From Candidatus Methylomirabilota bacterium (GTDB lineage: Bacteria > Methylomirabilota > Methylomirabilia > Rokubacteriales > CSP1-6): a DNA stretch of 35,306 nt. Where the stretch lies: positions 1 through 35,306 of the forward strand of contig DASYQB010000115.1 in the NCBI GenBank assembly GCA_036005985.1, in the 5' to 3' direction. A model generated the notes under the pieces. The model did not search any database. It worked only from the letters and a program-made list of their open reading frames with translations, and was not told where the DNA came from. A program made the position numbers and the translations under genes. Positions 10,052 to 29,116 of the stretch are shown in pieces; position 1 is the first letter of the stretch; every line of letters begins with the position of its first letter.

Positions 10052-10771
10052 CTACTTCTCGCCGAGGTAGGCCTTGCGCACGACGTCGGAGCGGAGGAGG
10101 GCGGCCGCGGCATCCTGCAGGACGATGCGCCCGGTCTGGATGACGTAGCCCCGATGGGCCACCCGCAGGGCCATCCGCGCGTTCTGCTCGACGAGCAGGA
10201 TGGTCGTGCCGAGCTGGTTGATGTTGCGGATGATGTCGAAGATCGTCTCCACGAGGATGGGCGAGAGACCCATCGACGGCTCGTCGAGTAGCAGCATGTC
10301 GGGCTTGGCCATGAGCGCGCGCCCCATGGCCAGCATCTGCTGCTCGCCTCCGGAGAGGGTGCCGCCCTTCTGGGCGAGGCGGTCGCGGAGCCGCGGGAAC
10401 AGCGCGAGCACCCGTTCCAGATCCTGGGGGATCGCCTCGCGGTCGGTGCGCGCGAAGGCCCCCAGCTCCAGGTTCTCCAGCACGGTCATGGGCGCGAAGA
10501 TGCGCCGGCCTTCCGGCGATTGGGCGATGCCAAGGCGCGCGATGCGGTGAGTCGGCACCCGGTCGATGCGCCGGCCGTCGAAGGTGACGGTCCCGCGAAG
10601 CGCCCGCACCAGGCCGATCACCGTGCGGAGCGTGGTGGTCTTGCCTGCCCCGTTGCCTCCGATCAGCGTCACGATCTCGCCCCGGCCCACGGTGAGGGAC
10701 ACACCCTTGAGCGCGCGGATGTTGCCGTAGTAGGCGTGCACGTCCTGCAGCGCGAGCAGCTCCGCGCTCAC
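10052..10771 (-). CDS. livF: Branched-chain amino acid (Liv-type) ABC transporter ATP-binding protein LivF
   Basis: Walker A GGNGAGKTT, signature LSGGEQQ and Walker B LLLDEPS are present. The GTG start overlaps the upstream stop (GTGA). Confidence 0.9.
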   Translation of the reverse strand: MSAELLALQDVHAYYGNIRALKGVSLTVGRGEIVTLIGGNGAGKTTTLRTVIGLVRALRGTVTFDGRRIDRVPTHRIARLGIAQSPEGRRIFAPMTVLENLELGAFARTDREAIPQDLERVLALFPRLRDRLAQKGGTLSGGEQQMLAMGRALMAKPDMLLLDEPSMGLSPILVETIFDIIRNINQLGTTILLVEQNARMALRVAHRGYVIQTGRIVLQDAAAALLRSDVVRKAYLGEK

Positions 10772-12753
10772 GTGGCGACCAGCTCCTGCTCGTAACCCTT
10801 GCCGAGGTACGCCTCGATCACCTGGGCGTTCTGCCGGATCTCCACCGGCGTGCCTTCGGCGATCCGCGTGCCGTAGTCGAGCACGGTGATGCGGTCGGAG
10901 ATTCCCATCACGACTTCCATGTGGTGCTCGATGAGGAGGACGGACAGGCCGAGTTCACGCCTTAGCAGACCGATCAGCTCGGTCAGCGTGTCGGTCTCCC
11001 GCGGATTCATGCCCGCGGTGGGCTCGTCGAGAAGGAGGAGCCGGGGCTCGGTGGCGAGCGCCCGGGCGATCTCGAGCCGCCGCTGATCGCCGTAGGCGAG
11101 ATTCTTGGCCATCTCCGCGGCCTTGGCGTCCAGGCCCACGAAGGCGAGGAGATCGGTGGCCCGGCCGCGCGCCCGCACCTCCTCGACCATCACGGCGGGC
11201 GGCCGGAAGACCGCGCCCGCCACCGAGGCGTGGAGCCGGCAGTGCTCGCCCACCAGCACGTTGTCGAGCACGCTCATGTTCTGGAAGAGGCGGATCGACT
11301 GGAAGGTGCGCGCGATCCCGCGTCCGACGATGGCGTGGGGGCGCAGGCCGACCACGCTCGCGCCGTCGAGCAGGATCTCGCCCCGGTCCGGCCGGAGCAG
11401 TCCGGTGACGAGGTTGAAGAAGGTCGTCTTGCCCGCGCCGTTCGGCCCGATGAGGCCGATGATGCCGCCCGCCGGGATGACCAGCTCCACGTCGCTCACC
11501 GCGATGAGGCCGCCGAAGCTCCGCGTCAGACCACGCACCTCGAGGACGGGAGGGCCACTGGGGGGCCGGCGACCCGGGCTCGCCGCTTCCCTCAGCCAGG
11601 CGGGCAGGGCCTCGGCGCGCGGGCGGGGCGGAGCAGCCACCAGCGCGAGCCTCTCCTCCCCCTCGTCGACGTCCGCCGCGGGCGGGCGGGCGCGGCGGCC
11701 CATGAGGCCCTCCGGGCGGATGAGCATGATGACGACCAGGCCGAGACCGAAGAAAAACCAGCGCCACAGCGTGAGATCGACGGAGGCGAGCGCGGCGATG
11801 CCGAGCGAGCGGCCGACCCAGCGGATGAAGAACGTCATCTGGGAGAGGAGGATACGGTCGAAGAGGGTGATGAGCATCCCGCCGAGGATCACGCCCTTGA
11901 GGCTGCCCATGCCTCCGAGGACGACCATGCACAGGAGCATGATGGAGACGTTGAACTCGAAGGCGCCCGGCGTGATGGCTTGCAGCTTGGCCGCGTAGAA
12001 CGAGCCGGCGAAGCCGGAGAAGGAGGCGCCGAGGGCGAAGGCGAGGAGCTTGGTCTTGACCGGATTGACGCCGGTGCAGTCGGCCGCCGTCTCGTCCTCG
12101 CGGATGGCCATCCAGGCCCGCCCGAGCCGCGAGTCGCGCATCCGGTTCATGGCCCACAGCGAAAACGCGCCGATGACCAGGATGAGGAAATACCAGGGAA
12201 TGAAGTCGGTGTCGAAGTTGACGAAGGGCAGGTGCGGGCGGCCGACGGGATTCACCCCGTTCTCGCCCCCCGTCAGGTTGAGCCGCTCCACCGGCTTCCA
12301 GCCGGCGATGTCGATGGTGATGTCGCCCATGTTGCGGATGGCCACGGGGATGATCTCGCCGAAGGCCAGGGTGATGATGGCCAGATAGTCTCCGCGCACC
12401 CGCAAGGTCGGCGCCCCGATCACCACTCCGAGCGCGGCGGAGACGGCCGCGGCGATCCAGATCACCACCCAGAAGCTCCACACGTGGCCGTACAGCGGGG
12501 AGCCGAGCACCGGCGAGTTGAGGAGACCCATGGTGTAGGCGCCGATGGCGAAGAACGCGGCGTAGCCCAGGTCGAGCATGCCCGCATAGCCCACCACGAT
12601 GTTGAGTCCGAGGGCGAGGAGGACGTAGATCATGGCGTCGGTGACCGCGTGCACGGTCTGCGCCTGCAGCCAGCGGTCGAGGAAGGGATAGCCGAGGAGC
12701 GCGGTGACGAGGAGGGCGGCGGGAATCACCCGGACGGAGCGGAAGTCGCTCAC
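10768..12753 (-). CDS. Fused Liv-type permease (LivM-like) and ATP-binding (LivG-like) protein
   Basis: The GTG at 12753 overlaps the livH stop (GTGA); the listed start at 13248 is an extension. The N-terminal ~330 aa is multi-TM and LivM-like (LALGLNIVVGYAGMLDLGYAAFFAIGAY). A ~45-aa Pro/Ala/Arg linker follows, then an ABC ATPase (GPNGAGKTTFFN, AYGDQRRLEIARAL, LLLDEPTAG). Confidence 0.85.
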   Translation of the reverse strand: MSDFRSVRVIPAALLVTALLGYPFLDRWLQAQTVHAVTDAMIYVLLALGLNIVVGYAGMLDLGYAAFFAIGAYTMGLLNSPVLGSPLYGHVWSFWVVIWIAAAVSAALGVVIGAPTLRVRGDYLAIITLAFGEIIPVAIRNMGDITIDIAGWKPVERLNLTGGENGVNPVGRPHLPFVNFDTDFIPWYFLILVIGAFSLWAMNRMRDSRLGRAWMAIREDETAADCTGVNPVKTKLLAFALGASFSGFAGSFYAAKLQAITPGAFEFNVSIMLLCMVVLGGMGSLKGVILGGMLITLFDRILLSQMTFFIRWVGRSLGIAALASVDLTLWRWFFFGLGLVVIMLIRPEGLMGRRARPPAADVDEGEERLALVAAPPRPRAEALPAWLREAASPGRRPPSGPPVLEVRGLTRSFGGLIAVSDVELVIPAGGIIGLIGPNGAGKTTFFNLVTGLLRPDRGEILLDGASVVGLRPHAIVGRGIARTFQSIRLFQNMSVLDNVLVGEHCRLHASVAGAVFRPPAVMVEEVRARGRATDLLAFVGLDAKAAEMAKNLAYGDQRRLEIARALATEPRLLLLDEPTAGMNPRETDTLTELIGLLRRELGLSVLLIEHHMEVVMGISDRITVLDYGTRIAEGTPVEIRQNAQVIEAYLGKGYEQELVAT

Positions 12754-13646
12754 GCCTTGTCCGGTACCTTCTCGCCGAGCAGCCCCTGGGGCCGGAAGAT
12801 CAAAACCAGGATCAGGATGGAAAAGACGATGGCGTTCGTCCAGCGCGCCGAGATGTACTGGTCGCTCCACGCGGAGAGGAAGCCGATGACGAGACCGCCC
12901 AGCGCGGCGCCCGGCATGCTCCCGATGCCGCCCAGGACCGCCGCGGTGAAAGCACGCAGACCCGCCTGGTAGCCCATCCACCACATCCCGATGTTGTAGT
13001 AGAGCCCCTGGATGATGCCGGCCGCCCCCGCGAGGGCGCCTCCGATGAAAAAGGTGAGGATGATGGTCTTCTCGACGTCGATGCCCATCGAGAGCGCGGT
13101 GTCCTTGTCCTGCGCGGTGGCTCGCATCGCCTTGCCCCACCGCGTGCGGGTCACGAAATACTGGAGGCCGATCATCAGCGGAATGGTGCCGGCGAGGACG
13201 AGGAGGTCCTTGGTGGTGATGAAGAGGAGCGAGTCCATGCCGAACCACTCGCGCAGGATGTCCACCGACGGGAACACGTCGGGATAGGCGATGGGCGCGG
13301 GGCCCTTCCAGATCAGGGTGAGGTTCTCCAGCATGAACGACACGCCGATCGCGGTGATGAGGGGGGCGAGCCGGAAGGCGTGCCGGAGAGGCCGATAGGC
13401 GACGCGGTCGATGACCACGTTGATCGTCCCCGTGGTCAGCATGGTGGCGAGGAAGACAGCGGGCAGCACGATCACGAGCTGCCAGCCGTGGAGCGTGGTG
13501 GCCATGCCGAGGAGAGTGAGGTAGCTGAGCGAGATGAAGAGGCCCAGCATGAAGACGTCGCCGTGCGCGAAGTTGATGAGGCCGATGATCCCGTAGACCA
13601 TGGTGTAGCCGAGGGCGATGAGCGCGAAGACGGCGCCGCGGGTCAC
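12750..13646 (-). CDS. livH: Liv-type ABC transporter permease LivH
   Basis: 298 aa, multi-TM, with LivH-like sequence (ALGYTMVYGIIGLINFAHGDVFMLG…). Confidence 0.9.
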   Translation of the reverse strand: MTRGAVFALIALGYTMVYGIIGLINFAHGDVFMLGLFISLSYLTLLGMATTLHGWQLVIVLPAVFLATMLTTGTINVVIDRVAYRPLRHAFRLAPLITAIGVSFMLENLTLIWKGPAPIAYPDVFPSVDILREWFGMDSLLFITTKDLLVLAGTIPLMIGLQYFVTRTRWGKAMRATAQDKDTALSMGIDVEKTIILTFFIGGALAGAAGIIQGLYYNIGMWWMGYQAGLRAFTAAVLGGIGSMPGAALGGLVIGFLSAWSDQYISARWTNAIVFSILILVLIFRPQGLLGEKVPDKA

Positions 13647-13689
13647 CCCGTTGACGGTCTGCTGGATCAGAACCTCGTGCCAGTCCAGA

Positions 13690-13775
13690 TTTATTTGGCC
13701 CGGGGGGGAGCGGCGCCGCTCCTCCCCCAGACCCCTTTTATTTGGACCGGGGGGGAGCGCCGCCGCTCCTCCCCC
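13690..13775 (-). repeat. Two tandem 39-bp copies (47-bp period) of a TTTATTTGG + GC-rich hairpin element between the binding-protein and permease genes
   Basis: Copy 1 is at 13690-13728 (tttatttggcccgggggggagcggcgccgctcctccccc). Copy 2 is at 13737-13775 (tttatttggaccgggggggagcgccgccgctcctccccc). Each folds into a GC stem of about 11-13 bp. Confidence 0.85.
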
Positions 13776-13827
13776 GGAACCCCCCCACCGGTTGTCCGCG
13801 CGCTGTCCTTCACCGTGGCGGGCGCGG

Positions 13828-15099
13828 CTACTCGAGGATGGCTTCGAACTGGAACTTGCAGCCGATGGGGCCGTCCGACTTCACGACCTTGAAGCCCGAC
13901 ATGGTGTCGTAGTCGACGTCACCGTTGGCGTCGAAGCTCCACTTGCCGTTGATGCCCTCGAAGTTCTTGGTAAGGGAGATCGCCTTGCGGAGGGCCTCCC
14001 GCTTCTCGGTGATGTCCTTGGCGCGGTCGATCTCGGGCGCGGCGCGCTTGAAGGCCTCGACGGCCACCCGGCCGCCCTCCGCCGCGTACAGCGCATAGGC
14101 CGTGGGCTCCTTGCCGAACTTCTTCTTGTACTCCTCGTACGTCTTGGCCCCCACCCCCTTCATCTTCTCGAAGGGCAGGCCGGCGAAGGTCACCCGCATA
14201 TCGGTGGCCATGGCCACCTCGCAGGTCGCCCCCTTCAGCAGCTCTTCCTCGAGGAGGCCGTCCGGCCCCATGAAGCGGACGCGCGGGGCGACCAGTCCCA
14301 CTTCCTTCATCTGACGGATGATGACCTGCGCGCCGGTCTCGATGACACCCCCCATGTAGACGAGATCGGCGCCGGAGGCGCGCACCTTGGTGAGGATGGG
14401 CTTCTGGTCGGGCTGCTTCCAGTCGATGCCCTCGTTGGCCACCACGGGGAGCCCGATCTTCTTGGCGGTGGCCTCGAAGACGTCGGCAATGCCCTTGCCG
14501 TAGAGCTCCTGGTCATTGAGGATGAACACCTTCTTCACGCCCAGGCGCTTGGCCCACTTGGCCGCCACCGCGCCCTGGATGTCGTCGGCGGGGATGGGAC
14601 GGAAGTAGTTCACGAAGCCGAGCGGGCGATAGATCTCCGGCTCGCCCGGCGCCGCCCCCTGCTTCTTGGTGAGCCCGGGATAGGTGTTGGCCGGGGTGAT
14701 CTGGGCCATGCGGGCCCGGTTGGTGATCGGTATGGAGACCTTGGCCGCCCCGGAGTTGTACGTGCCGACGTAGAGGATGGCGAGCGGATCCGCCACCGCC
14801 TTGTTCGCGTTCTCCGCCTCGACCGCACCGTCCCACTTGCCGGTCTGCGGAGAGGCGTCATCCATGTTGACGATCTCCAGGCAGTATCCGGCGACCACCC
14901 CGCCCGTCTCCGCGATGGCCATGTCGAGCCCGTTCTTCATGCCCGTGCCCTCGGGGATCATCGCGCCTTGCATGGGCCACGAGGTGTAGATGCGGAACTT
15001 GCCCTTCGGACACGATTGGGCGGTCCCCTCGATCGGAATGGAGGCCACCATGACGAGCACCGCGACGCCGAATGCTTCCAGCCATCCCCATCTGCGCAT
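13828..15099 (-). CDS. Liv-type (LivK/LivJ family) periplasmic substrate-binding protein
   Basis: The ATG at 15099 is preceded by GGGAGGGG; the listed start at 15192 is an extension. It has a signal peptide (MRRWGWLEAFGVAVLVMVASIPIEGTAQS) and family-typical sequence throughout. Confidence 0.85.
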   Translation of the reverse strand: MRRWGWLEAFGVAVLVMVASIPIEGTAQSCPKGKFRIYTSWPMQGAMIPEGTGMKNGLDMAIAETGGVVAGYCLEIVNMDDASPQTGKWDGAVEAENANKAVADPLAILYVGTYNSGAAKVSIPITNRARMAQITPANTYPGLTKKQGAAPGEPEIYRPLGFVNYFRPIPADDIQGAVAAKWAKRLGVKKVFILNDQELYGKGIADVFEATAKKIGLPVVANEGIDWKQPDQKPILTKVRASGADLVYMGGVIETGAQVIIRQMKEVGLVAPRVRFMGPDGLLEEELLKGATCEVAMATDMRVTFAGLPFEKMKGVGAKTYEEYKKKFGKEPTAYALYAAEGGRVAVEAFKRAAPEIDRAKDITEKREALRKAISLTKNFEGINGKWSFDANGDVDYDTMSGFKVVKSDGPIGCKFQFEAILE

Positions 15100-15249
15100 A
15101 GCGTCCCCTCCCGCATGACTACGGCGTGAGCAGCGATTACCGATCCGCCACCGGCTTGGCCGGATGCTGGAGATTCGGGCGGCGGCTGTCAAGGGGTTTC
15201 TTGCGGCCCGTCCTGGGTTATCCTGTGCGCCATCGAACGGAGGCCAATC

Positions 15250-16077
15250 ATGGCGGAACCACGAGTCATCTACGATGCGAAGCCCGGCTCACCGATCGCC
15301 GTAGATCATGCCTTCTACGACCGGCTCGCCCAGCAGACCGCTTCCCGCACCCTGGTCGAGCGCTTCATCGTGCCCATGCGCTCCGGCCGCGCCTGGCCGG
15401 TGCGGGCCGGCCAGCTCTTCCGCATCGTGGCGGTGGAGGGGCCGCAGGTCGCGGACTTCAACGCGTGGAATCTCGACAACCCCCGCGAGCGCTTCTGGGC
15501 TTCCCGGACCAAACAGCTCCACCGGGCCCACGTCACCACCTACGACCGGCTCTGGTCCTCCCTGCCCTATCTCCGGCCCATGCTCACCATCACCAACGAC
15601 ACCATCCGCTATGGCCTCGACGCGGATGGCGCGGGCTGCCACGATCTGCTCGGCACGCGCTGCGATCCCTACGTGCACAAGATGCTCAACGGCGAGGACT
15701 TCGATCTCTGCTGCCACTCCAACCTCGTGCGCGCGGTCGCCCCCTACCGCCTCACCGAGCTCGACGTCCACGACGTGCTCAACATCTTCCAGGTCACGGG
15801 GCTGACCAAGGACGACCGCTACTTCGTCAAAGGGAGTCCCGCCAAGAAGGGGGACTTCATCGAGCTCTTCGCCGAGATCGACGTGCTGTGCGCCATCTCC
15901 ACCTGTCCTCACGGCGATCTTTCCGTGCAGATGTGGGGGGACGAGGCGGGCGATCCCCTCAGCACCTGCCGGCCCCTCGCCGTGGAGATCTGGCAGCCGG
16001 ATCCGGAGCTGCTCACGGGCTGGCGCTCTCCCGCGGTCTCCGACTATCGCGGAGACCACGGCCTTCGCCGCGGCTAG
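15250..16077 (+). CDS. DUF1989 protein (urea-carboxylase-associated protein / carboxyguanidine deiminase subunit-like), larger paralogue
   Basis: GGAGG lies upstream of the ATG. The sequence (…FIVPMRSGRAWPVRAGQLFRIVAVEGPQVADFNAWN…) matches my recollection of the DUF1989 family. Confidence 0.7.
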   Translation: MAEPRVIYDAKPGSPIAVDHAFYDRLAQQTASRTLVERFIVPMRSGRAWPVRAGQLFRIVAVEGPQVADFNAWNLDNPRERFWASRTKQLHRAHVTTYDRLWSSLPYLRPMLTITNDTIRYGLDADGAGCHDLLGTRCDPYVHKMLNGEDFDLCCHSNLVRAVAPYRLTELDVHDVLNIFQVTGLTKDDRYFVKGSPAKKGDFIELFAEIDVLCAISTCPHGDLSVQMWGDEAGDPLSTCRPLAVEIWQPDPELLTGWRSPAVSDYRGDHGLRRG

Positions 16078-16101
16078 CCGCGCGCAGGCGAGAAAGGACT
16101 C

Positions 16102-16704
16102 ATGGCGACCACGCAGATCCACACGATTCCCGCCCGACGGGGCGCCGCGGCGCGAGTGGCCGCGGGCCAGCGGGTCAAGGTCATCAATACCCACGGCACC
16201 CAGGTCGTCGACACCTGGGCCTTCAATGCGGGCGACGCCACGGAGTGGATGTCCATGGAGGCCAGCCGCGCGTGGTTCCTGAAGCTGCGCGCCGCCGTCG
16301 GCGACGCCTTCCTCACGAACCAGCGGCGGCCCATTCTGACCCTGATCGAAGACACCTCGGGGAGGGCCCACGACACCCTCATGGCCGCCTGTGATCTGCC
16401 GCGGTACCGGCTGCTCGGGGTCGAAGGCCATCACGACAACTGCCGGGACAATCTGCACGCGGCGCTGGCCGGCCTCGGCATCACGGTGCCCGCCACGCCG
16501 TCACCGCTCAACCTGTTCATGAACATTCCCTGGACGCCCGACGGGACGCTCGCCTGGGCCGAGCCCATCTCCCCGCCCGGGAGCTACGCCGTCTTCCGCG
16601 CGGAGATGGATCTGGTCATCGCCTTCTCTGCCTGTCCCCAGGACATCCTGCCCATCAACGGCCGCACCGGATCGACCACCGAAGCGCACTACGTCATCGA
16701 GTAG
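16102..16704 (+). CDS. DUF1989 protein, smaller paralogue
   Basis: AAAGGA lies upstream of the ATG. IPARRGAAARVAAGQRVKVINTHGTQVVDTWAFN is clearly paralogous to the preceding gene. Confidence 0.7.
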   Translation: MATTQIHTIPARRGAAARVAAGQRVKVINTHGTQVVDTWAFNAGDATEWMSMEASRAWFLKLRAAVGDAFLTNQRRPILTLIEDTSGRAHDTLMAACDLPRYRLLGVEGHHDNCRDNLHAALAGLGITVPATPSPLNLFMNIPWTPDGTLAWAEPISPPGSYAVFRAEMDLVIAFSACPQDILPINGRTGSTTEAHYVIE

Positions 16705-21834: not shown

Positions 21835-22665
21835 GTGGCGGCCTTTTCGCCGTTCCATTTTCACCGGGTCTTCCTCGCGCTCACCGGCGAGACGCTCTTC
21901 GCCTATATCCAGCGCCAGCGGATCGAGAAGGCCGCGGGCGTCCTCGCCGCGGGTGGGGAAACCAGCGTCCTCGAGGTGGCGCTCGATCATGGCTTCGCCT
22001 CCGCCGCCACCTTCGCCCGAGCCTTCCGCGTCCGCTTCGGCATGACCGCGAGCGAATGGCGGCGCGGTGGGGCGGCGCGCTGGCGCGAGCGGCACCTGCG
22101 CAAGATGGGCAAAGAGTTTCGCAAGACGGGCAAAGCATCCGGCCGGCGCCGGCCCGATACTCCTCCCACCCACGCCCGGGAGGCCGCCATGAGCGTCGTC
22201 GTCAGGGAGCTTGCCACGCAGCACGTGGCGTACATGCGCTACGTCGGGCCTTACGGAGCGCAGGGCATTCCGGAGCTCTGGACACGCCTCCGTCGGTGGA
22301 TGGAAACCCGCGGCCTCGAGGTCGCCTCCACCGTCCGGCTCGGCGTCGCCTACGATGACGCCGGAGTGACCGAGCCCGCGAAGTGCTCCTATGACGCCTG
22401 TGTCGTGGTGCCACCCGCCTTTGCCGTCGATCGCTGGGTGAATCTCATGGACGTCCCCGGCGGGAGATACGCGGTGACCGGCTTCCACGGCCCGGCTCAC
22501 CAGATCGAGAGCGCGTGGCACGAGGTCTTCGCGGATTGGTTACCCGGGAGCGGGTATCAGCCCGATGATCGCGCCTGCTTCGAGACCTATCGTGGGGCGC
22601 CACCCTCGGGCTCGAAGACCGGGACCTTTCGCTGCGATCTCTGCCTTCCGGTGCGCCCGCTGTGA
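21835..22665 (+). CDS. AraC-family transcriptional regulator with C-terminal GyrI-like effector domain; the true start is probably upstream of the listed GTG
   Basis: AraC HTH (FSPFHFHRVF…TFARAFRVRFGMTASEWRR) and a GyrI-like C-terminus are present. Family-conserved N-terminal sequence (EYEKRVNRVIDHIRERLDEPLTLAGLA) is encoded in frame upstream of 21835, but no ATG/GTG/TTG occurs there. Confidence 0.75.
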   Translation: MAAFSPFHFHRVFLALTGETLFAYIQRQRIEKAAGVLAAGGETSVLEVALDHGFASAATFARAFRVRFGMTASEWRRGGAARWRERHLRKMGKEFRKTGKASGRRRPDTPPTHAREAAMSVVVRELATQHVAYMRYVGPYGAQGIPELWTRLRRWMETRGLEVASTVRLGVAYDDAGVTEPAKCSYDACVVVPPAFAVDRWVNLMDVPGGRYAVTGFHGPAHQIESAWHEVFADWLPGSGYQPDDRACFETYRGAPPSGSKTGTFRCDLCLPVRPL

Positions 22666-23192: not shown

Positions 23193-24293
23193 TCAGGCGA
23201 AGCGCGAGCTGGACCCCGATCGATCCGCGGCCGCCGATTTCCCCCACGGGGCGCCATGCATCCCGTTCTCGCCCTCGAACACGCCCGCACGAGACAGGGG
23301 CGGGCCGGTCCCGGGGGTTCCCGAAGAGTCCGCGCCACGACCGCTCGGGCGATCGGTGATCGATCGGTCAGGGTCGCCCGACCGCCGGAGGAGGGCGAAG
23401 GTCCACACCAGCCACACGTAGGGCGCGGACAGCGCATGAACCCCTACCGCTCCCGCGAGTCGCAATGCCGCCGCCTCCAGGAAGGGAATGGTCACGATGG
23501 TGATGGCCACGGCGGCCACTCCGATGCCCGCGAAGCGCCGCAATGCCGCGGCCGCGATGAGGGCGGCGGTGAAGCCCGCGAGCCCCGTCTCCACCTGCCA
23601 CGCGGGGGTGCCGGCAAGATAGCCCATGCCCACGGCCGCGATGGATGCTCCCACCATGGCCACGCCGAGACGGCGATCGGCAATCGACGCGGCGATAGCC
23701 AGGCCCACTCCCACCGCCGCGTTCGGGAGAAAGAAGATCTGCCCTACCCCCCGGAGGCCGCCCAGAAGAATGACGAGGAGCGGAGAGGCGGGCGCGGGGG
23801 GGACGGTGGGAAGCACGGCAACCTTGTTCCACGCGAAGGTGGTGAGCGCGCTCCAGAGGAGCCAGAAAGCCGGCACGTAGGGACCGATGACGAGCGGAAT
23901 CTCCCAGGCCGCGAGCAGGCGGTACATCACGATCGAGAGACCACTCACGAGCACGCCGCCAAGAACGAGGGAGACGGCGAGGCTCGGGCCCACGGCAAAA
24001 AAGGTCGCGCAGGCCAGGCCGAGAAACCAGCCGTTCAGCTCGACGAGCCCGGTGTCGAGGAAGGTGGATGACACGCCCCCGCACTCGGCGGTGACCCGGG
24101 CGATCACGCTCGCGATCATGCCCGCCACCGCGAGATGGGGAGCGGCCACGGCCAGCACGACGACGGCGGCCAGCCCCACCCACGCGTCGTATACGAAGAA
24201 TGTCTGGCCGATCGCGGCGAGATGTCGTATGACGACTCGCCGCGCCCGGCTCAGGAAGTCATCCAACCAGCGCGGTGGCCGTCCACTGGCCAT
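23193..24293 (-). CDS. Urea transporter (UT/SLC14) family-like integral membrane protein
   Basis: Two homologous halves each carry the UT-type motifs: AAIGQTFF…GLVELNGWFLGLACATFF and LRGVGQIFFLPNA…GLAGFTAALIAAAAL. A non-membrane tail of about 70 aa follows. Confidence 0.55.
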   Translation of the reverse strand: MASGRPPRWLDDFLSRARRVVIRHLAAIGQTFFVYDAWVGLAAVVVLAVAAPHLAVAGMIASVIARVTAECGGVSSTFLDTGLVELNGWFLGLACATFFAVGPSLAVSLVLGGVLVSGLSIVMYRLLAAWEIPLVIGPYVPAFWLLWSALTTFAWNKVAVLPTVPPAPASPLLVILLGGLRGVGQIFFLPNAAVGVGLAIAASIADRRLGVAMVGASIAAVGMGYLAGTPAWQVETGLAGFTAALIAAAALRRFAGIGVAAVAITIVTIPFLEAAALRLAGAVGVHALSAPYVWLVWTFALLRRSGDPDRSITDRPSGRGADSSGTPGTGPPLSRAGVFEGENGMHGAPWGKSAAADRSGSSSRFA

Positions 24294-24876
24294 TGACGAG
24301 CTCGTGGTCGCCCCACTTGAGGGGCACGGGGATCTCGGCGCGAATCGCGAGATGGCCGTGGTGACCGCTCTGCGTCCCCGGCTCGAGCCAGAATCCCTCG
24401 GTGGGATCGTAGATGCGCGCCTGGTCGGCCTCGGTGCGCACCACGCTCACCTCGTGATAGACCACGCGCGTGCCAATCCAGTTGAAGGCGGTGGGGATGG
24501 CGTCCCACTTCCGGCGCCAGTGGCTGATTCTCTCCTCCGCGCACCCGCGCAGGAGCTGTCCCGGATACGCCTCGATACCCTTGGCGCGGAACAGCTCGAG
24601 GGCGAAGGCGCCGAAGACGCCGCAGTCGATCGTCTCCGCCTTGACCGCCTCGCACCACGCTACTGGCCAGCGGATCGGTCCCCACGCCCATCGCTGGGTG
24701 ATCCAGCGTGGCCCGGCGAGAGCGAGACCGTCCGTGGAGGAGAAATCGTAGGAGCGCCCCATGGCGATCAGCCAGGCGCGCGCGCGGTCGCAGCAGGGGC
24801 CGTGGTGGGTCAGCGTCGACCCTACCGCCTGCTTCCACTCGTCGCGCTCAGGAGTATCCGCCACGCCCGAACGCAT
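24259..24876 (-). CDS. Transglutaminase-like (papain-fold Cys-His-Asp) superfamily protein
   Basis: Candidate triad: Cys85 (IDCGVFGAFALELFRAKGIEA), His141 (VVYHEVSVV) and Asp157 (RIYDPTEG), with core-like spacing. The ATG at 24876 lies 8 nt after an AAGGAG embedded in the upstream gene. Confidence 0.6.
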   Translation of the reverse strand: MRSGVADTPERDEWKQAVGSTLTHHGPCCDRARAWLIAMGRSYDFSSTDGLALAGPRWITQRWAWGPIRWPVAWCEAVKAETIDCGVFGAFALELFRAKGIEAYPGQLLRGCAEERISHWRRKWDAIPTAFNWIGTRVVYHEVSVVRTEADQARIYDPTEGFWLEPGTQSGHHGHLAIRAEIPVPLKWGDHELVNGQWTATALVG

Positions 24877-27103
24877 AGCTCATACTCCTTTCATAGGCCC
24901 CTGCATCGCAGATCACCAGCCGGTCGCCGATCTTGAGAGTGTCCGGCAGATCGAGGCCCTGGGAGAGAACGTCGTCCTCCATGCAAATGCGGCCGAGGAC
25001 ACGCACCGGGCCACGTGATACCGGTACCGGCCGCTCGTCCACGAGATGGAAGAACCGGTGCGGATACACGGAGGCGAGGGGCAGCTCGGCGATGCAGGCG
25101 TCCACCACCACCTCCTGCAGCTTGCCCTCTTGCTGCCGCACGTCGAGGACGCTCGTCACCATGGCCATGGTCGCCTGGGTCAGGGCGCGTCCCGGCTCCA
25201 CGTAGACCGCGGTCAGGCCCGACAGCGTGTTCCGGGCGAAGCGGACGATGTCCCGGAAGGGCAGGCGCGCGAAATCGTCGGGATGGTAGCCCCCGCCGAG
25301 ATCGAGGGCGCGAACGCGACGCCCGGAAGCGGCCTCGATGGCTCCCGCCCACGCCACGGACGACTCCGCCACGTCACGCCAGTGCCCCACGCCGATCATG
25401 GTGCTCGCCATGTGCACGTGGATGCCGAGGTCACGGCCCGGCGGGAGGGCGGCCACCGCCGCGCAGAGGCGCTCGAAATCCGCCGGCTCGTCCACGGAGA
25501 CGCCGAAGCGCGACCGGCTTCCCGGAATCCGGAGGCGCACGCCCCACAGGCCGTCCGTTCGACGGGAGCCGGCCAGCCGCTCGAGCTCCTCCACCGAGTC
25601 GCAGAACACGACACGCAGCCCGTCCACCGCGCGCTCGGTGGGCGGCCACCACTTGCCGGGGCCGTTCAGCACGATCTCGTCGGCTCGCCAGCCCGCCTCG
25701 AGGGCCCGCCGCACCTCGAGCAGGCTGATGCACTCCGCGAGCATGCCTGCCTTGCGCGCGAGCATCAGGTACTCGGCATCGGGACTGGTCTTGAGGCTGT
25801 ACGCGTAGCGTAGGAGGATGCCCTCCACCGGCGCCACGGTGGGCAGGCGTCCGAAGGCCGCCTCGGCGGTGCGAGGAAGAAAGAGCCGGTGGGGTGTGGC
25901 AACCACCGCGGCCGTGGCGAGGAGATCAGCCTCGCTCTCGGGAGAAAGGGTGGGCGCGGCGGCGGTCGGCGCCTCGTCCGGAACGAGCATGGGCACGATG
26001 GCGGAGAGCGAGGCGCCGTACTTGCCATGGACGCCCAGCTGCCCATGCTCGGGCTCCACGGGCAGGGGCAGCGGTATTCCGGAGCGGACCGGCACTTCGA
26101 GGACGACGCGGGTGAACTCCGCCTGCGCCGAGAAGGCCCGCGGGCCGTCGGGGAGCCCGAGGGCGCGACGGACGAGGGCGGCGGGAAGATTTCGCCCCGC
26201 CAAGGTCGCTCCGTGCACCCAGGCGGGAAAGCGCGGATTCCACTCGAGCCACCAGCGTCGTCCGTCGACGTCGCGCAGCACCTCGATCTCCGCTCCGCCC
26301 GTCCAGCCGATGGCCCGCACCGCCGCTTCGATGGGGCCGAGGAGATCCGCGGGCAGCTCGCCCACGTGCCCCGCCCATGTCTTGCCTTCGGGCGTGGTGA
26401 TGCGCTTGCGCATGTAGAGCGCGTCGCAGAGCCGGCCGTCGTAGGCGGCGAGACAGACGGACTCCTCGTAGCCACGCACGTGAACCTGGACGGACAGGCG
26501 ATCGGTCTGCCAGCCCTCGCGCATCCAGGCACGCACCTGCTCGAGCTGGCGCCAGTCTCCCACCGCCACCGCCTCGTGGTAGGGCCCCTTGATCCACACC
26601 CGCCAGGAGTGGGCGCGGCAGAAGGCGTAGATCTCCTCGTCGGAGGCGGAGAGATCCAGCGACGGCGCGATCTCGAACGGCAGGAGCTCGGCCACGCTGG
26701 GACGCGGCTTGCGGCTGGGCGCGAGCGCCTTTTCGTCCGGGGCGAGGAGGAGCGGATGGGTCGCCAGGGTGCGCGCGAGCCACGCCACCTCGAGATCCAG
26801 GGTGGGAATCCACAGCGCGCCCTGGTCGAGCTCCGCCTGCACTTCCTTGGCGTAGAGATCTTCTTCGATGAGGTCCCAGGGTGGCTTCAGCCAGGTCGCG
26901 TCGAACACCTCATGGTGAAGACCGGAGCTCCCCGCCCAGTAGTCGACGCCCACCAGCTGCGCGGAGGGGAATGCCGCGCGCACGGAGCGCGCGACGCCCA
27001 GCCCCGCCGACGGGCTGGGACCGGAGTAGAGACCCGAGATGAAGACGGTTTCTTTCATCGCCTTGTCGCCCCCCGCGTGGGGCGTGCCTGCGGCTCCCGT
27101 CAT
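24848..27103 (-). CDS. Fusion protein: N-terminal ATP-grasp ligase domain + C-terminal PLP-dependent Orn/DAP/Arg decarboxylase (fold-type III) domain
   Basis: The N-terminal half has ATP-grasp-like features (RVWIKGPYHEAVAV, GGAEIEVLRD, WWLEWNPRFPAWV). The C-terminal half has YSLKTSP (PLP Lys), HVHMAS, LDLGGGY, EPGRAL, GRICMEDDVL and DAGAYERSMSYAF. An alternative start is the ATG at 27058 (MKETVFISG). Confidence 0.75.
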   Translation of the reverse strand: MTGAAGTPHAGGDKAMKETVFISGLYSGPSPSAGLGVARSVRAAFPSAQLVGVDYWAGSSGLHHEVFDATWLKPPWDLIEEDLYAKEVQAELDQGALWIPTLDLEVAWLARTLATHPLLLAPDEKALAPSRKPRPSVAELLPFEIAPSLDLSASDEEIYAFCRAHSWRVWIKGPYHEAVAVGDWRQLEQVRAWMREGWQTDRLSVQVHVRGYEESVCLAAYDGRLCDALYMRKRITTPEGKTWAGHVGELPADLLGPIEAAVRAIGWTGGAEIEVLRDVDGRRWWLEWNPRFPAWVHGATLAGRNLPAALVRRALGLPDGPRAFSAQAEFTRVVLEVPVRSGIPLPLPVEPEHGQLGVHGKYGASLSAIVPMLVPDEAPTAAAPTLSPESEADLLATAAVVATPHRLFLPRTAEAAFGRLPTVAPVEGILLRYAYSLKTSPDAEYLMLARKAGMLAECISLLEVRRALEAGWRADEIVLNGPGKWWPPTERAVDGLRVVFCDSVEELERLAGSRRTDGLWGVRLRIPGSRSRFGVSVDEPADFERLCAAVAALPPGRDLGIHVHMASTMIGVGHWRDVAESSVAWAGAIEAASGRRVRALDLGGGYHPDDFARLPFRDIVRFARNTLSGLTAVYVEPGRALTQATMAMVTSVLDVRQQEGKLQEVVVDACIAELPLASVYPHRFFHLVDERPVPVSRGPVRVLGRICMEDDVLSQGLDLPDTLKIGDRLVICDAGAYERSMSYAFGRGGYS
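24885..24890 (-). promoter_or_regulatory. Shine-Dalgarno (AAGGAG) for the transglutaminase-like gene, embedded in the last codons of the upstream fusion gene
   Basis: The minus strand reads GAA AGG AGT ATG AGC TAT GCG (E R S M S Y A). This is an unusually AT-rich run of codons for this genome. Confidence 0.6.
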
Positions 27104-27309: not shown

Positions 27310-28470
27310 TCAGCGCGCCACGCAGTACGTCCGGAACGCGAGGAATGCGAGGGCCCCCAGGACCACGGCGAGGACGCCGAGCGCCGTCTCCATTCCCAGC
27401 CGATCTACCATGGCCCCGATGGGCGGACCGGCCACCACGAAGGACAGCCGGAACACGAGGGTGGCGATCGAGAGGACGCTCGCCCGGTCCTCGGGCGGCG
27501 CGTCCTGCTGCATCACCGTGGCGAGAATCGGCCCTTGCAGTCCACGGATCGTCATGAAGCAGAGGTAGAAGATGATGCCCCACGCGGCGTGGCTCAGGGA
27601 CAGCCCGGCATAACCGAGGGGAACGAGCAGGCAGCAGCCGAGGAGAGCCAGGCGCAAGCCGAGGGCCCCCACCACGCGCGAGCTGGCCAGCGATACCGCG
27701 GCCAGCCACACGTGCGCGCATGCCCAGAGCGGACCGAACCACGCCGCGGGAATGCCGCGGGCCTGCATGTAGGGCTGGATGAGCCAGATCATCACGAAGG
27801 TCGACAAGCCGAGGGCGACGCTGAGCGCCATGGCGGCGCGCAGTCTCCGGTGGTGCCAGAGCGTGAAGCCGATGATATGGAGAGCGCGCTCGGTGTGGGA
27901 GCGGCCTCCGGCCCCGCGCGGGCGCGGGACCTCGTACAGCAGGGCCGCGGTGGAGAGGGCCAGCGCGGCCGCCGGCACCTGGAGCCAGAAAGGCCAGCGC
28001 GGCCCCATCGCGTAGAGCCAGCCGCCGGCCGCCGCGCTCAGCGCCTCGGCGGACTGGGAGACGGCGCGGATCCGGCCGTCCCAGCGCGTGTACTGCGCGG
28101 TGCGGCTCGCGCCGTCCAGGGAGACCCAGAGGAGGGCGCGATCCGCCCCCGACATGAAGGCACTCCCCGCCCCCAGCGCGGTCTCGGCAACCGCCACCGC
28201 CCAGAAGCTCTCCGCGCGCGTGTAGAGAAGCCATCCCGCCATGAGAAGCCCGGTGCTCGCGAGGAGCGACCAGCGATAGCCCACCCGATCGGCCACGTAT
28301 CCCGACGGGAACTCGAAGAGCACCACGGCCAGCCCGAAGATGGCCTGAAGGACCATGATGTCGGCGAGCGACATCCCGATCTGATCCTTCCAGAAAAGCG
28401 TGATGATCGGGATGGGGAAGAGGATGAACTGGAAGGTGGCGAAGGCGATGAGCAGCCGGACATTTCTCAT
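27310..28470 (-). CDS. MFS transporter
   Basis: 386 aa, about 12 TM segments, with motif-A-like PSGYVADRVGYRWS. Confidence 0.8.
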   Translation of the reverse strand: MRNVRLLIAFATFQFILFPIPIITLFWKDQIGMSLADIMVLQAIFGLAVVLFEFPSGYVADRVGYRWSLLASTGLLMAGWLLYTRAESFWAVAVAETALGAGSAFMSGADRALLWVSLDGASRTAQYTRWDGRIRAVSQSAEALSAAAGGWLYAMGPRWPFWLQVPAAALALSTAALLYEVPRPRGAGGRSHTERALHIIGFTLWHHRRLRAAMALSVALGLSTFVMIWLIQPYMQARGIPAAWFGPLWACAHVWLAAVSLASSRVVGALGLRLALLGCCLLVPLGYAGLSLSHAAWGIIFYLCFMTIRGLQGPILATVMQQDAPPEDRASVLSIATLVFRLSFVVAGPPIGAMVDRLGMETALGVLAVVLGALAFLAFRTYCVAR

Positions 28471-28483
28471 GCCGGGACGGAAG

Positions 28484-29071
28484 TCAGTCGTGCTTCTCCA
28501 CGTCGCTCTGGGTGAAGCCGAAGATGATGAGCACGGTGAAGTTATCGTACTTGGACCGACCGACGCCGGGGGCCTGGGCGGCGAGCGGCGTGTCGGTTTT
28601 TCCCTCGAACTCGTAGATGCGGAGCTCGGTCTGCCCGCGATTGCGCTCCCACTTGAACAGGGCGATCTCCGGGAATGGAACGTTGACCACCGGGACCTGG
28701 AAGGCGGGAATCCCGATGAAGGTGCGATCGCTGTCCGTGCCGTACACCGAGGCGAAGAGCTTCACCTTGACCTCGGGCCATTCGGAGACGGTGCGAACGC
28801 CGTGAGCCCGGAGCCACGTGGTGACGAACGCCTTGATGAAGTCCTGGTTCCCCGTCTGCACGAACACCTCGAGATTGACGCCGGGACCCTGGAGCTTCGT
28901 GACATCGAGCTGGGCGAGGGCCCGCTCCAGCGACCGGATGAGCAGCTGCTGGGTGACGCCCTCGGGTTTCGTGGGAGGGAGCTGGCCGGCCAGGGAGCAG
29001 CCCCCGGCGAGGAGACAGCCCATGAGGGCGAGCCTCACCCTCATCGAGCGAAGTCGGGCCGACGTGACCAT
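28484..29071 (-). CDS. Hypothetical lipoprotein
   Basis: The ATG at 29071 is preceded by AAGGA; the listed start at 29107 is an extension. It has a signal peptide with a lipobox-type Cys (MVTSARLRSMRVRLALMGCLLAGGCS). I recognise no domain. Confidence 0.6.
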   Translation of the reverse strand: MVTSARLRSMRVRLALMGCLLAGGCSLAGQLPPTKPEGVTQQLLIRSLERALAQLDVTKLQGPGVNLEVFVQTGNQDFIKAFVTTWLRAHGVRTVSEWPEVKVKLFASVYGTDSDRTFIGIPAFQVPVVNVPFPEIALFKWERNRGQTELRIYEFEGKTDTPLAAQAPGVGRSKYDNFTVLIIFGFTQSDVEKHD

Positions 29072-29116
29072 GCTGTCCTTGGTATCACGGTGAGGGCGAG
29101 GAGGCACGCGGAAGCC

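Follow-up and report, generated by a model that had tools for sequence, protein, structure and literature searches.

A conserved fusion of an ATP-grasp ligase-like domain with a fold-type III PLP decarboxylase, linked to a predicted cysteine enzyme and a UT-family membrane protein

The window analysed here, the whole stretch of 35,306 nucleotides (nt) from contig DASYQB010000115.1 of a Candidatus Methylomirabilota bacterium (assembly GCA_036005985.1), contains three overlapping genes on its reverse strand. The first (24848–27103) is a fusion gene whose longest open reading frame (ORF) encodes 751 amino acids (aa), comprising a putative ATP-grasp ligase domain (residues 16–340; 26084–27058), an inter-domain segment (residues 341–402; 25898–26083) and a fold-type III pyridoxal phosphate (PLP) decarboxylase core (residues 403–751 and the stop codon; 24848–25897). 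The second (24259–24876), hereafter the partner, shares 29 nt with the 3′ end of the fusion gene and encodes a protein of 205 aa with a predicted transglutaminase/papain-like fold, while the third (23193–24293) overlaps the partner gene by 35 nt and encodes a membrane protein of the UT (urea-transporter) family, the longest ORF of which is 366 aa. The three genes, in the order fusion, partner and UT pore, are best read as one operon with translational coupling, which the fusion gene opens. Residue numbers of the fusion protein refer throughout to the 751-aa ORF.

The fusion ORF is one uninterrupted frame and the longest of its neighbourhood. The guanine-cytosine (GC) content of the window is about 70%, at which long spurious ORFs are common, and the GC fractions at the three codon positions of the fusion ORF (0.74/0.51/0.87) follow the pattern typical for the real genes of the window. 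A homologue search with the fusion protein retrieved more than 900 sequences, hundreds of which are about 740 aa long, and nearly all of the best 120 have 735–765 residues and cover 97–99% of the query, to which they are between 94% and 43% identical. The position equivalent to M16 (MKETVF...) is the first residue of every homologue, so that the real start is probably at 27058, which gives a protein of 736 aa. As more than 100 full-length homologues (735–765 aa) align end to end across both halves, a frameshift or assembly chimera joining two genes, which the first-pass annotation of this DNA had named as a possible weakness, is excluded; hundreds of independent assemblies contain the full-length fusion, as do cultured isolates of Collimonas, Pseudomonas akapageensis and Actinokineospora. 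The AlphaFold2 (AF2) model computed from a 78-sequence alignment has a mean predicted local distance difference test (pLDDT) value of 92 and a predicted template-modelling score (pTM) of 0.90, the latter suggesting a defined arrangement of the two domains. The proposal of that annotation that a single 751-aa polypeptide joins an ATP-grasp ligase to a decarboxylase therefore holds, given the open frame, the domain matches and the full-length homologues, and its nine quoted motifs are all present in the translation (YSLKTSP, for instance, is encoded at 25781–25801). Judged from sequence, the protein is a genuine and conserved covalent joining of two domains with intact catalytic residues.

The decarboxylase half contains both Pfam domains of the fold-type III enzymes above their gathering cut-offs, namely Orn_Arg_deC_N (PF02784; residues 433–642, E 1e-12, 48.4 bits vs 23.4) and Orn_DAP_Arg_deC (PF00278; residues 644–735, E 7e-10, 39.5 bits vs 23.0). 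Its key residues are K438 (the PLP lysine, codon 25790–25792), H562/H564, D601-GGG605, E636-PG, C707-M-E-D-D711 and D733-AGAY737, of which K438, H562/H564, D601, G603–605, E636, C707, D711 and Y737 are invariant among 78 sequences of the family. The PLP lysine, histidine stack, glycine loop, glutamate, cysteine and tyrosine align with those of LysA and are also kept in the split relatives described below, in which the two halves are separate genes. The fold-type III motif set recognised in the first-pass annotation is thus complete, and the PLP lysine and the other key residues, whose absence on proper alignment had been considered there, are all in place. In Protein Data Bank (PDB) sequence searches the best matches are plant and bacterial LysA (6n2a, E 9e-18), followed by the N-citrylornithine decarboxylase FslC and by BtrK (2j66/7ru7, E 4e-11). 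Foldseek comparison of the AF2 model retrieves the arginine decarboxylase of PBCV-1, LysA, a D-Orn/D-Lys decarboxylase (DOKDC), BtrK, FslC and SbnH with E values of about 1e-19 to 1e-20 (best E 2e-20; target-normalised TM-score up to 0.75), and the model displays the TIM-barrel and beta-sandwich fold of this class.

The decarboxylase half is not LysA, and its substrate, as far as the alignment indicates, is not diaminopimelate. The score against TIGR01048, the lysA equivalog model, is 100.4 bits, far below the cut-off of 297.9. Alignment of specificity residues, suggested in the first-pass annotation for several decarboxylases, was made against LysA; relative to the Arabidopsis enzyme, the arginine of the 'RPSLY' motif lies opposite Leu676 and the glutamate of the 'CES' motif opposite the invariant Met708. 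In LysA structures this arginine and glutamate hold the distal carboxylate and ammonium of diaminopimelate, and their replacement implies that the far end of the substrate may not be a free amino-acid centre. The other equivalog cut-offs are not reached either, with 67 vs 500 bits for FslC (NF041039, E 1e-18), 36 vs 700 for DokD, 18 vs 409 for NspC and 39.5 vs 478 for the exosortase-associated decarboxylase. An explanation of the protein as a plain LysA with an extra domain, or as an assembly or frameshift artefact, is extremely improbable, even though LysA is the best PDB sequence match and many homologues are named 'diaminopimelate decarboxylase' by JGI. Other homologues are deposited as 'hypothetical protein' or 'ATP-grasp domain-containing protein'; the name 'diaminopimelate decarboxylase' is a mis-annotation for members of this family. 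A decarboxylase-only relative, with 43% identity to residues 387–733, was observed in Cellulomonas chitinilytica (L065, 6001–7068), where it lies inside a 1332-aa ORF that has no ATP-grasp match and no partner.

The N-terminal half is assigned to the ATP-grasp superfamily from its residues and from the profile matches of its relatives. K172, E213/E214, E272, E274, E287, N289 and R291 are invariant throughout the family, in fused and split forms alike, and supply the central-domain lysine, the acidic hinge pair and the E...ExNxR pattern of ATP-grasp enzymes, where the ExNxR Mg/ATP motif is formed by E287, N289 and R291 inside LEWNPRFPAW. All of 13 diverse orthologues match PF15632 (ATPgrasp_Ter) at E<=0.1 (best E 2e-9) as well as the PRK12767 'carbamoyl-phosphate-synthase-like' ATP-grasp models, and the separate ATP-grasp gene of a split locus (L085) passes the cut-offs of both PF15632 (36.6 bits) and PF02655 (27.1 bits). 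When a profile of the N-terminal half was compared with the PDB, 22 of the 23 matches at E<=1 were ATP-grasp enzymes, namely biotin carboxylase domains and a carbamoyl-phosphate-synthase-like protein aligned on the ExN Mg/ATP motif (best E 0.008); the hhalign comparison with PurD is in register and not significant. The AF2 model has pLDDT values above 90 over residues 1–320, and the Foldseek list obtained with the whole model is filled by decarboxylase matches. The window copy itself falls below the PF15632 threshold, an outcome that the first-pass annotation had named as speaking against its ATP-grasp assignment, but the evidence from the family overrides this, and the assignment appears safe at family level as judged from these alignments.

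The segment between the two domains had been described as a Pro/Ala-rich linker of about 80 aa, of which only about 30 aa are truly variable. Per-column conservation indicates that residues 330–339 (FTRVVxExPV) close the ATP-grasp domain, that residues 340–370 form a conserved arm (L345, P346, E350/P351 and the invariant K361 in GK(Y/H)(G/P)), and that the hypervariable Pro/Ala-rich stretch is limited to about residues 371–402. The pLDDT of the model drops to 55–67 solely in blocks covering residues ~346–365. The K361 motif recurs as NK(F/Y)G at residues 20–25 of the stand-alone decarboxylases in split relatives, and the K361 segment is therefore regarded as the N-terminal arm of the decarboxylase unit. 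This unit is thus about 410 aa long, the usual size of LysA, and is not short, as had been thought. The possibility that K361, an invariant residue in a low-confidence segment, serves as an internal carrier to which a substrate is tethered was also considered, an idea that was dropped as the motif is present in stand-alone decarboxylases as well.

The partner is predicted from its model to be a divergent transglutaminase/papain-fold Cys-His-Asp enzyme, either a hydrolase or an acyl-transferase. Its putative triad consists of Cys85 (24622–24624), His141 (24454–24456) and Asp157 (24406–24408), which are invariant in an alignment of 32 members with the pattern DCGVF...YHE...YDPT. In the AF2 model (pLDDT 85), C85 starts a helix (85–98), H141 lies on a strand (138–147) and D157 on an adjacent one (152–157), and this Cys-His-Asp order on a helix/strand core is that of the transglutaminase/papain clan. 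The Foldseek matches belong mostly to the same clan and include the putative cysteine protease 3isr, PeiP/PeiW, arylamine N-acetyltransferases (NAT), TG2, CtaG and PNGase, the best clan members being 3isr (E 2e-2, probability 0.96–0.99) and PeiP (E 6e-2). A profile search of 1.84 billion representative proteins recovered 312 members of the partner family, mostly of about 200–230 aa among the 150 members listed, and found no bridge to any named family. No signal peptide is present. The residues H25, C28, C29 and C75 are also invariant in the 32 homologues and may form a metal or redox site.

The linkage of the partner to the fusion is strict. Among 54 complete fused genes, taken from a set of 79 loci and additional ones, 51 are followed by at least 650 nt of sequence, and the partner lies directly downstream, with overlapping stop and start codons, in all 51. 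Two metagenome proteins, P0273 (944 aa, fusion and partner) and P0184 (447 aa, partner and UT), were considered as 'Rosetta-stone' evidence and rejected; the decarboxylase part of P0273 breaks off near residue 706 without its DAGAY end, the outcome expected of a frameshift where genes overlap, and judging from this sequence it is probably such a frameshift and not a natural triple fusion.

The UT-family protein of the window matches PF03253 with 104.8 bits (cut-off 25) over profile positions 5–291 of 292, which covers the ten-transmembrane-helix fold, and shows a full-length match to the Desulfovibrio urea transporter dvUT (3k3f, E 3e-12). Its start is uncertain, as the equivalent gene in the related contig L001 begins 8 nt before the end of the partner gene. 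The Yut equivalog model TIGR03441 gives 77.9 bits vs a cut-off of 274.6, and urea is therefore not established as the transported substrate. The UT gene follows the partner in 10 of 47 fused loci, and such an arrangement is seen in several phyla. The order fusion, partner, UT is also found in near-identical contigs, in a Polyangiaceae metagenome-assembled genome (MAG) and in a 'Proteobacteria' MAG, while an Acidobacteria-like contig and a Bathyarchaeia MAG encode the fusion and the partner and no UT protein.

Relatives of the fusion are encoded by at least 590 species genomes in a scan of one genome per GTDB species, ranging over Acidobacteriota, Proteobacteria, Actinomycetota, Methylomirabilota-like MAGs, Bacteroidota, Leptospira and archaeal MAGs. 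The cultured carriers include Collimonas antrihumi DSM 104040, Pseudomonas akapageensis PS24, Actinokineospora enzanensis DSM 44649, Mucilaginibacter gossypiicola Gh-48 and Leptospira ognonensis. In 20 distant loci (L067–L086) with 23–27% identity, the two halves are adjacent genes of about 350 and 450 aa; the hosts are Bacteroidota (including Mucilaginibacter gossypiicola and Chitinophaga), Leptospira ognonensis, Cloacimonadota, Accumulibacter and a cyanobacterium. A Nitrospirales locus (L064, 39% identity) also reads as two ORFs. The gene order in split loci (e.g. L085, 5720–12306) is a PqqD-like gene, the ATP-grasp gene, the decarboxylase gene and a gene fusing UT to Peptidase_M23, which in L085 encodes 718 aa with the UT domain first and the Peptidase_M23 domain second. 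The PqqD-like gene (~80 aa) lies directly upstream of the ATP-grasp gene in all 20 split loci, and the four of its products that were tested match PF05402 above the cut-off (E 5e-10 to 8e-15). The UT-M23 gene directly follows the decarboxylase gene in 19 of the 20, being full length in 18, and none was detected in L080; the M23 domain retains the H..D and HxH metal motifs. In Bacteroidota, one or two genes for tetratricopeptide repeat (TPR) proteins come next in the split loci, and upstream in L085 there is a LytTR two-component system.

Near-invariant residues specific to the family are common to the fused and split forms, namely D103, E105, K132, K233, T237, K241 and NPRFPAW in the ATP-grasp half, together with K361, N480-GPxK484, R532-FG (SRFG), C707-M708 (CM..D) and F745, and the two forms are for this reason considered one functional family. 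Distant relatives encode the same two enzymes side by side as independent genes, a classic indication of a shared pathway. The link of UT to this family is ancient, the UT protein being encoded by a separate gene in the window and joined to a peptidase in split loci. The first-pass annotation, which was confined to the fusion ORF and whose interpretation is supported in part, correctly described a two-domain fusion, proposed that it may channel between ligation and decarboxylation, and missed the partner, the UT-family protein and the PqqD and M23 components, which are the most informative about function.

The reading considered best, to which we give about an even chance, is a compact pathway of ligation, decarboxylation and trimming or transfer, after which a small amide, amine or peptide-derived product would be carried across the membrane. 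In the first step, the ATP-grasp domain would use ATP to convert a carboxylate into an acyl-phosphate and join it to an amine, leaving an alpha-amino acid tethered through its side chain. In the second, the PLP domain would remove the free alpha-carboxylate of the tethered amino acid to give a terminal primary amine. The partner cysteine may then hydrolyse or transfer the acyl or peptidyl group (release, trimming or recycling), and the UT-like pore would pass the small polar product, or a small substrate, across the membrane. A PLP decarboxylase requires a free alpha-amine. The replacement of the LysA distal-site residues by leucine and methionine is what an acylated distal end of the substrate would lead one to expect, and the order of ligation before decarboxylation would be that of BtrJ/BtrK, FslA/FslC and SbnE/SbnH by analogy. 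The domain identities, the intact catalytic residues, the conserved fusion, the linkage to the partner and to UT and the orthology with the split operons are observed, while the sequence of the two reactions, what the partner does, which way transport runs and what kind of substrate is used are inferred.

Several observations weigh against this pathway. The window copy scores only 19.4–21.4 bits against PF15632, where the cut-off is 29.1; the fold matches of the partner are weak (best E 3e-3, TM 0.3–0.4), and the partner has no profile match in Pfam, NCBIfam or the PDB. In 37 of 47 fused loci no UT gene lies within 6 kb, so that export through UT cannot be essential everywhere, and the UT pore is narrow in UT structures, which limits the possible cargo. 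The order of the reactions is drawn solely from analogy and from the missing distal-site pair of LysA. Neither the window nor any fused locus contains a PqqD-like gene or yielded a candidate precursor peptide, and no conserved precursor-like small ORF was found in the split loci, the only candidates being antisense shadows of conserved genes.

The same domain evidence also fits the reverse order, a serious rival that we hold to be somewhat doubtful, in which the decarboxylase would first generate a free amine from an ordinary amino acid and the ATP-grasp domain would couple this amine to the carboxylate of a metabolite, polysaccharide or peptide. Decarboxylation comes first in the pathways of MfnA/MfnD (methanofuran), Cj1436/Cj1438 (Campylobacter capsule amides) and glutathionylspermidine synthetase. 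The glutathionylspermidine synthetase/amidase (GspSA) likewise pairs ATP-grasp with a Cys-His amidase, as the present operon does, and the E-64 pathway employs a PLP decarboxylase and an amide synthetase in this order (PMC12568646). However, the nearest solved relatives of the fusion decarboxylase include BtrK, FslC and SbnH, which act on side-chain-acylated amino acids, and there is no conservation of the residues with which ornithine decarboxylase and LysA grip a distal amine or carboxylate that is free.

The PqqD-like protein, a homologue of RiPP (a peptide made by the ribosome and modified after translation) recognition elements, is present in every distant split locus and passes its Pfam cut-off wherever tested, which together with the intact metal motifs of M23 would fit chemistry directed at a peptide. 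The ATP-grasp enzyme would then add an amino acid to a ribosomal peptide or small protein, the decarboxylase would modify it, and the protease (transglutaminase-like or M23) would cut the leader or free a product that leaves through UT; PqqD, a transglutaminase-like protease and an ATP-dependent amide former are the components of the lasso B1/B2/C logic. This explanation, which overlaps the compact pathway preferred above and does not exclude it, is judged unlikely, since the PqqD gene is missing from all fused loci including the window, no conserved small precursor ORF was found, the alpha-amine must be free for a PLP decarboxylase to act, and a peptide cannot pass the UT pore. A RiPP cluster would combine a recognition element with a precursor gene, and the recognition element is confined here to the split loci. 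More speculative still, and quite improbable as a whole, is the proposal that the fused and split operons represent a single undescribed system of biosynthesis in two versions, in which ATP-grasp would put an amino acid on a peptide or protein scaffold, the decarboxylase would act on it in place, and the protease (transglutaminase-like or M23) would free a small amine or amide at the cytoplasmic mouth of the UT-fold pore. If this were true, homologues of urea channels would be exporters of a specialised metabolite, and the system would be an ATP-grasp counterpart to scaffold-peptide ('pearlin'-type) biosynthesis.

The lost LysA residues are exactly those binding the L-centre of diaminopimelate, which would also fit an L-centre in peptide linkage and thus an editing of cell-wall peptides, where the decarboxylase would act on the free D-centre of peptide-bound meso-diaminopimelate or a similar residue in a peptidoglycan precursor, ATP-grasp would add or amidate a residue, and the transglutaminase-like and M23 proteins would be wall peptidases. 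The pseudomurein endoisopeptidases PeiP and PeiW among the fold matches of the partner, the usual cleavage of peptidoglycan by M23 peptidases, and a weak match of one family member to an archaeal pseudomurein ATP-grasp model (E 0.014) agree with such a role. Nevertheless it is very improbable, as the module is accessory and patchy and also occurs in a Bathyarchaeia MAG, the partner lacks a signal peptide, linked mur genes or other genes for the cell wall are absent, and the supporting matches are all weak.

The genes flanking the module vary by taxon and are not part of it; they encode a major facilitator superfamily (MFS) protein, an acyltransferase and ThiI in the window, a class-V aminotransferase and YcaO in Collimonas, and phospholipase C and an MFS protein in Pseudomonas. 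The MFS gene upstream of the fusion (27310–28470) is intact in the window (386 aa) and reduced to a remnant of 122–129 aa in three 94%-identical contigs (L001–L003), in which an AraC/GyrI-like regulator gene, intact in the window (21835–22665, 276 aa), is represented by two ORFs of about 70 aa. The flanks of these contigs are decaying or mis-assembled, and their three-gene module is intact. A 207-aa protein without family match (28484–29107) is conserved solely in the same close contigs. The window also contains two DUF1989 / 'urea amidolyase-associated' (UAAP-like) genes (15250–16077 and 16102–16704) beside a Liv/Urt-like ATP-binding cassette (ABC) transporter, with the binding protein at 13828–15192 and the permeases and ATPases at 10052–13646; all of these nitrogen genes of urea or guanidine type (10052–16704) score below equivalog cut-offs, lie about 7 kb from the UT-like gene and in other taxa are unlinked to the module. 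Scans of the window for Rfam families and tRNAs gave no hits. In Pyrinomonadaceae and Sphingomonadales, the fused loci are flanked by one or two copies of a protein of about 240 aa without Pfam match, which is absent from the window (e.g. L005, 6269–6967; also L013, L015, L017, L036, L039, L045 and about 30 other fused loci); its conserved HRDH...NQ(F/Y)HG pattern is suggestive of a metal-binding oxygenase-like enzyme.

One of the closest known systems is butirosin biosynthesis, in which BtrJ and BtrK (with BtrI and BtrH) pair an ATP-grasp enzyme with a fold-type III PLP decarboxylase acting on side-chain-tethered glutamate, and BtrK is a PDB relative of the fusion decarboxylase (Foldseek E 4e-19, identity only ~23%). 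The butirosin pathway also employs the papain-clan acyltransferase BtrH. In the window, by contrast, the two enzymes are fused and no gene for an acyl-carrier protein is linked, the third enzyme is an unrelated transglutaminase-fold protein of about 205 aa, and a pore of the UT family accompanies them. FslA/FslC (rhizoferrin) and SbnE/SbnH (staphyloferrin B) likewise ligate and then decarboxylate, with LysA-like decarboxylases acting on side-chain-acylated ornithine or diaminopropionate, and FslC and SbnH (7kh2, 6knk) are structural neighbours of the fusion decarboxylase; however, their ligases are NIS (non-ribosomal-peptide-synthetase-independent siderophore) synthetases and not ATP-grasp enzymes, and the window is without linked siderophore uptake genes. 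LysA agrees with the fusion decarboxylase in fold and in the complete set of PLP catalytic residues, whereas the fusion adds an N-terminal arm with an invariant lysine and an ATP-grasp domain, and its distal-site pair is replaced.

Lasso peptide clusters (B1/B2/C) resemble the present loci in three components, namely a PqqD-type protein, found here in split operons, a transglutaminase-like Cys-His-Asp enzyme, found in fused ones, and an ATP-dependent amide former. Unlike here, the lasso ligase is an asparagine-synthetase homologue, and the PLP decarboxylase and the UT pore are without counterpart in lasso clusters; in the loci studied, PqqD and the transglutaminase-like protein never occur together and no precursor peptide was found. 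GspSA combines an ATP-grasp amide synthetase with a Cys-His amidase, and the MfnA/MfnD and Cj1436/Cj1438 systems include an amine-producing PLP decarboxylase, but the decarboxylases of this group are of other fold types and act before ligation, and none of these systems is linked to UT. With the bacterial UT urea channels (dvUT, Yut) the third gene of the window shares the full-length UT fold, yet it adjoins a biosynthetic-looking enzyme pair in place of urease or urea catabolism genes. A 2026 survey (PMC12998343) records bacterial UT-M23 fusions, giving no function for them and no remark on neighbouring genes. In full-text literature searches no description was found of the fusion, of the operon, of PF15632 or of UT with PqqD or M23, and an earlier in-silico mention is possible.

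Identification of the product would correct a common mis-annotation and would give the first non-urea context for bacterial UT and UT-M23 proteins, and the product could be a common metabolite or signal of soil bacteria; as cultured carriers exist, direct testing is feasible. The pairing of ATP-grasp with a LysA-like decarboxylase is known from butirosin and, with other ligase types, from rhizoferrin and staphyloferrin B, while what is new here is a widespread family, self-contained in two to four genes, which is tied to a urea-channel homologue and a cytoplasmic-looking protease.

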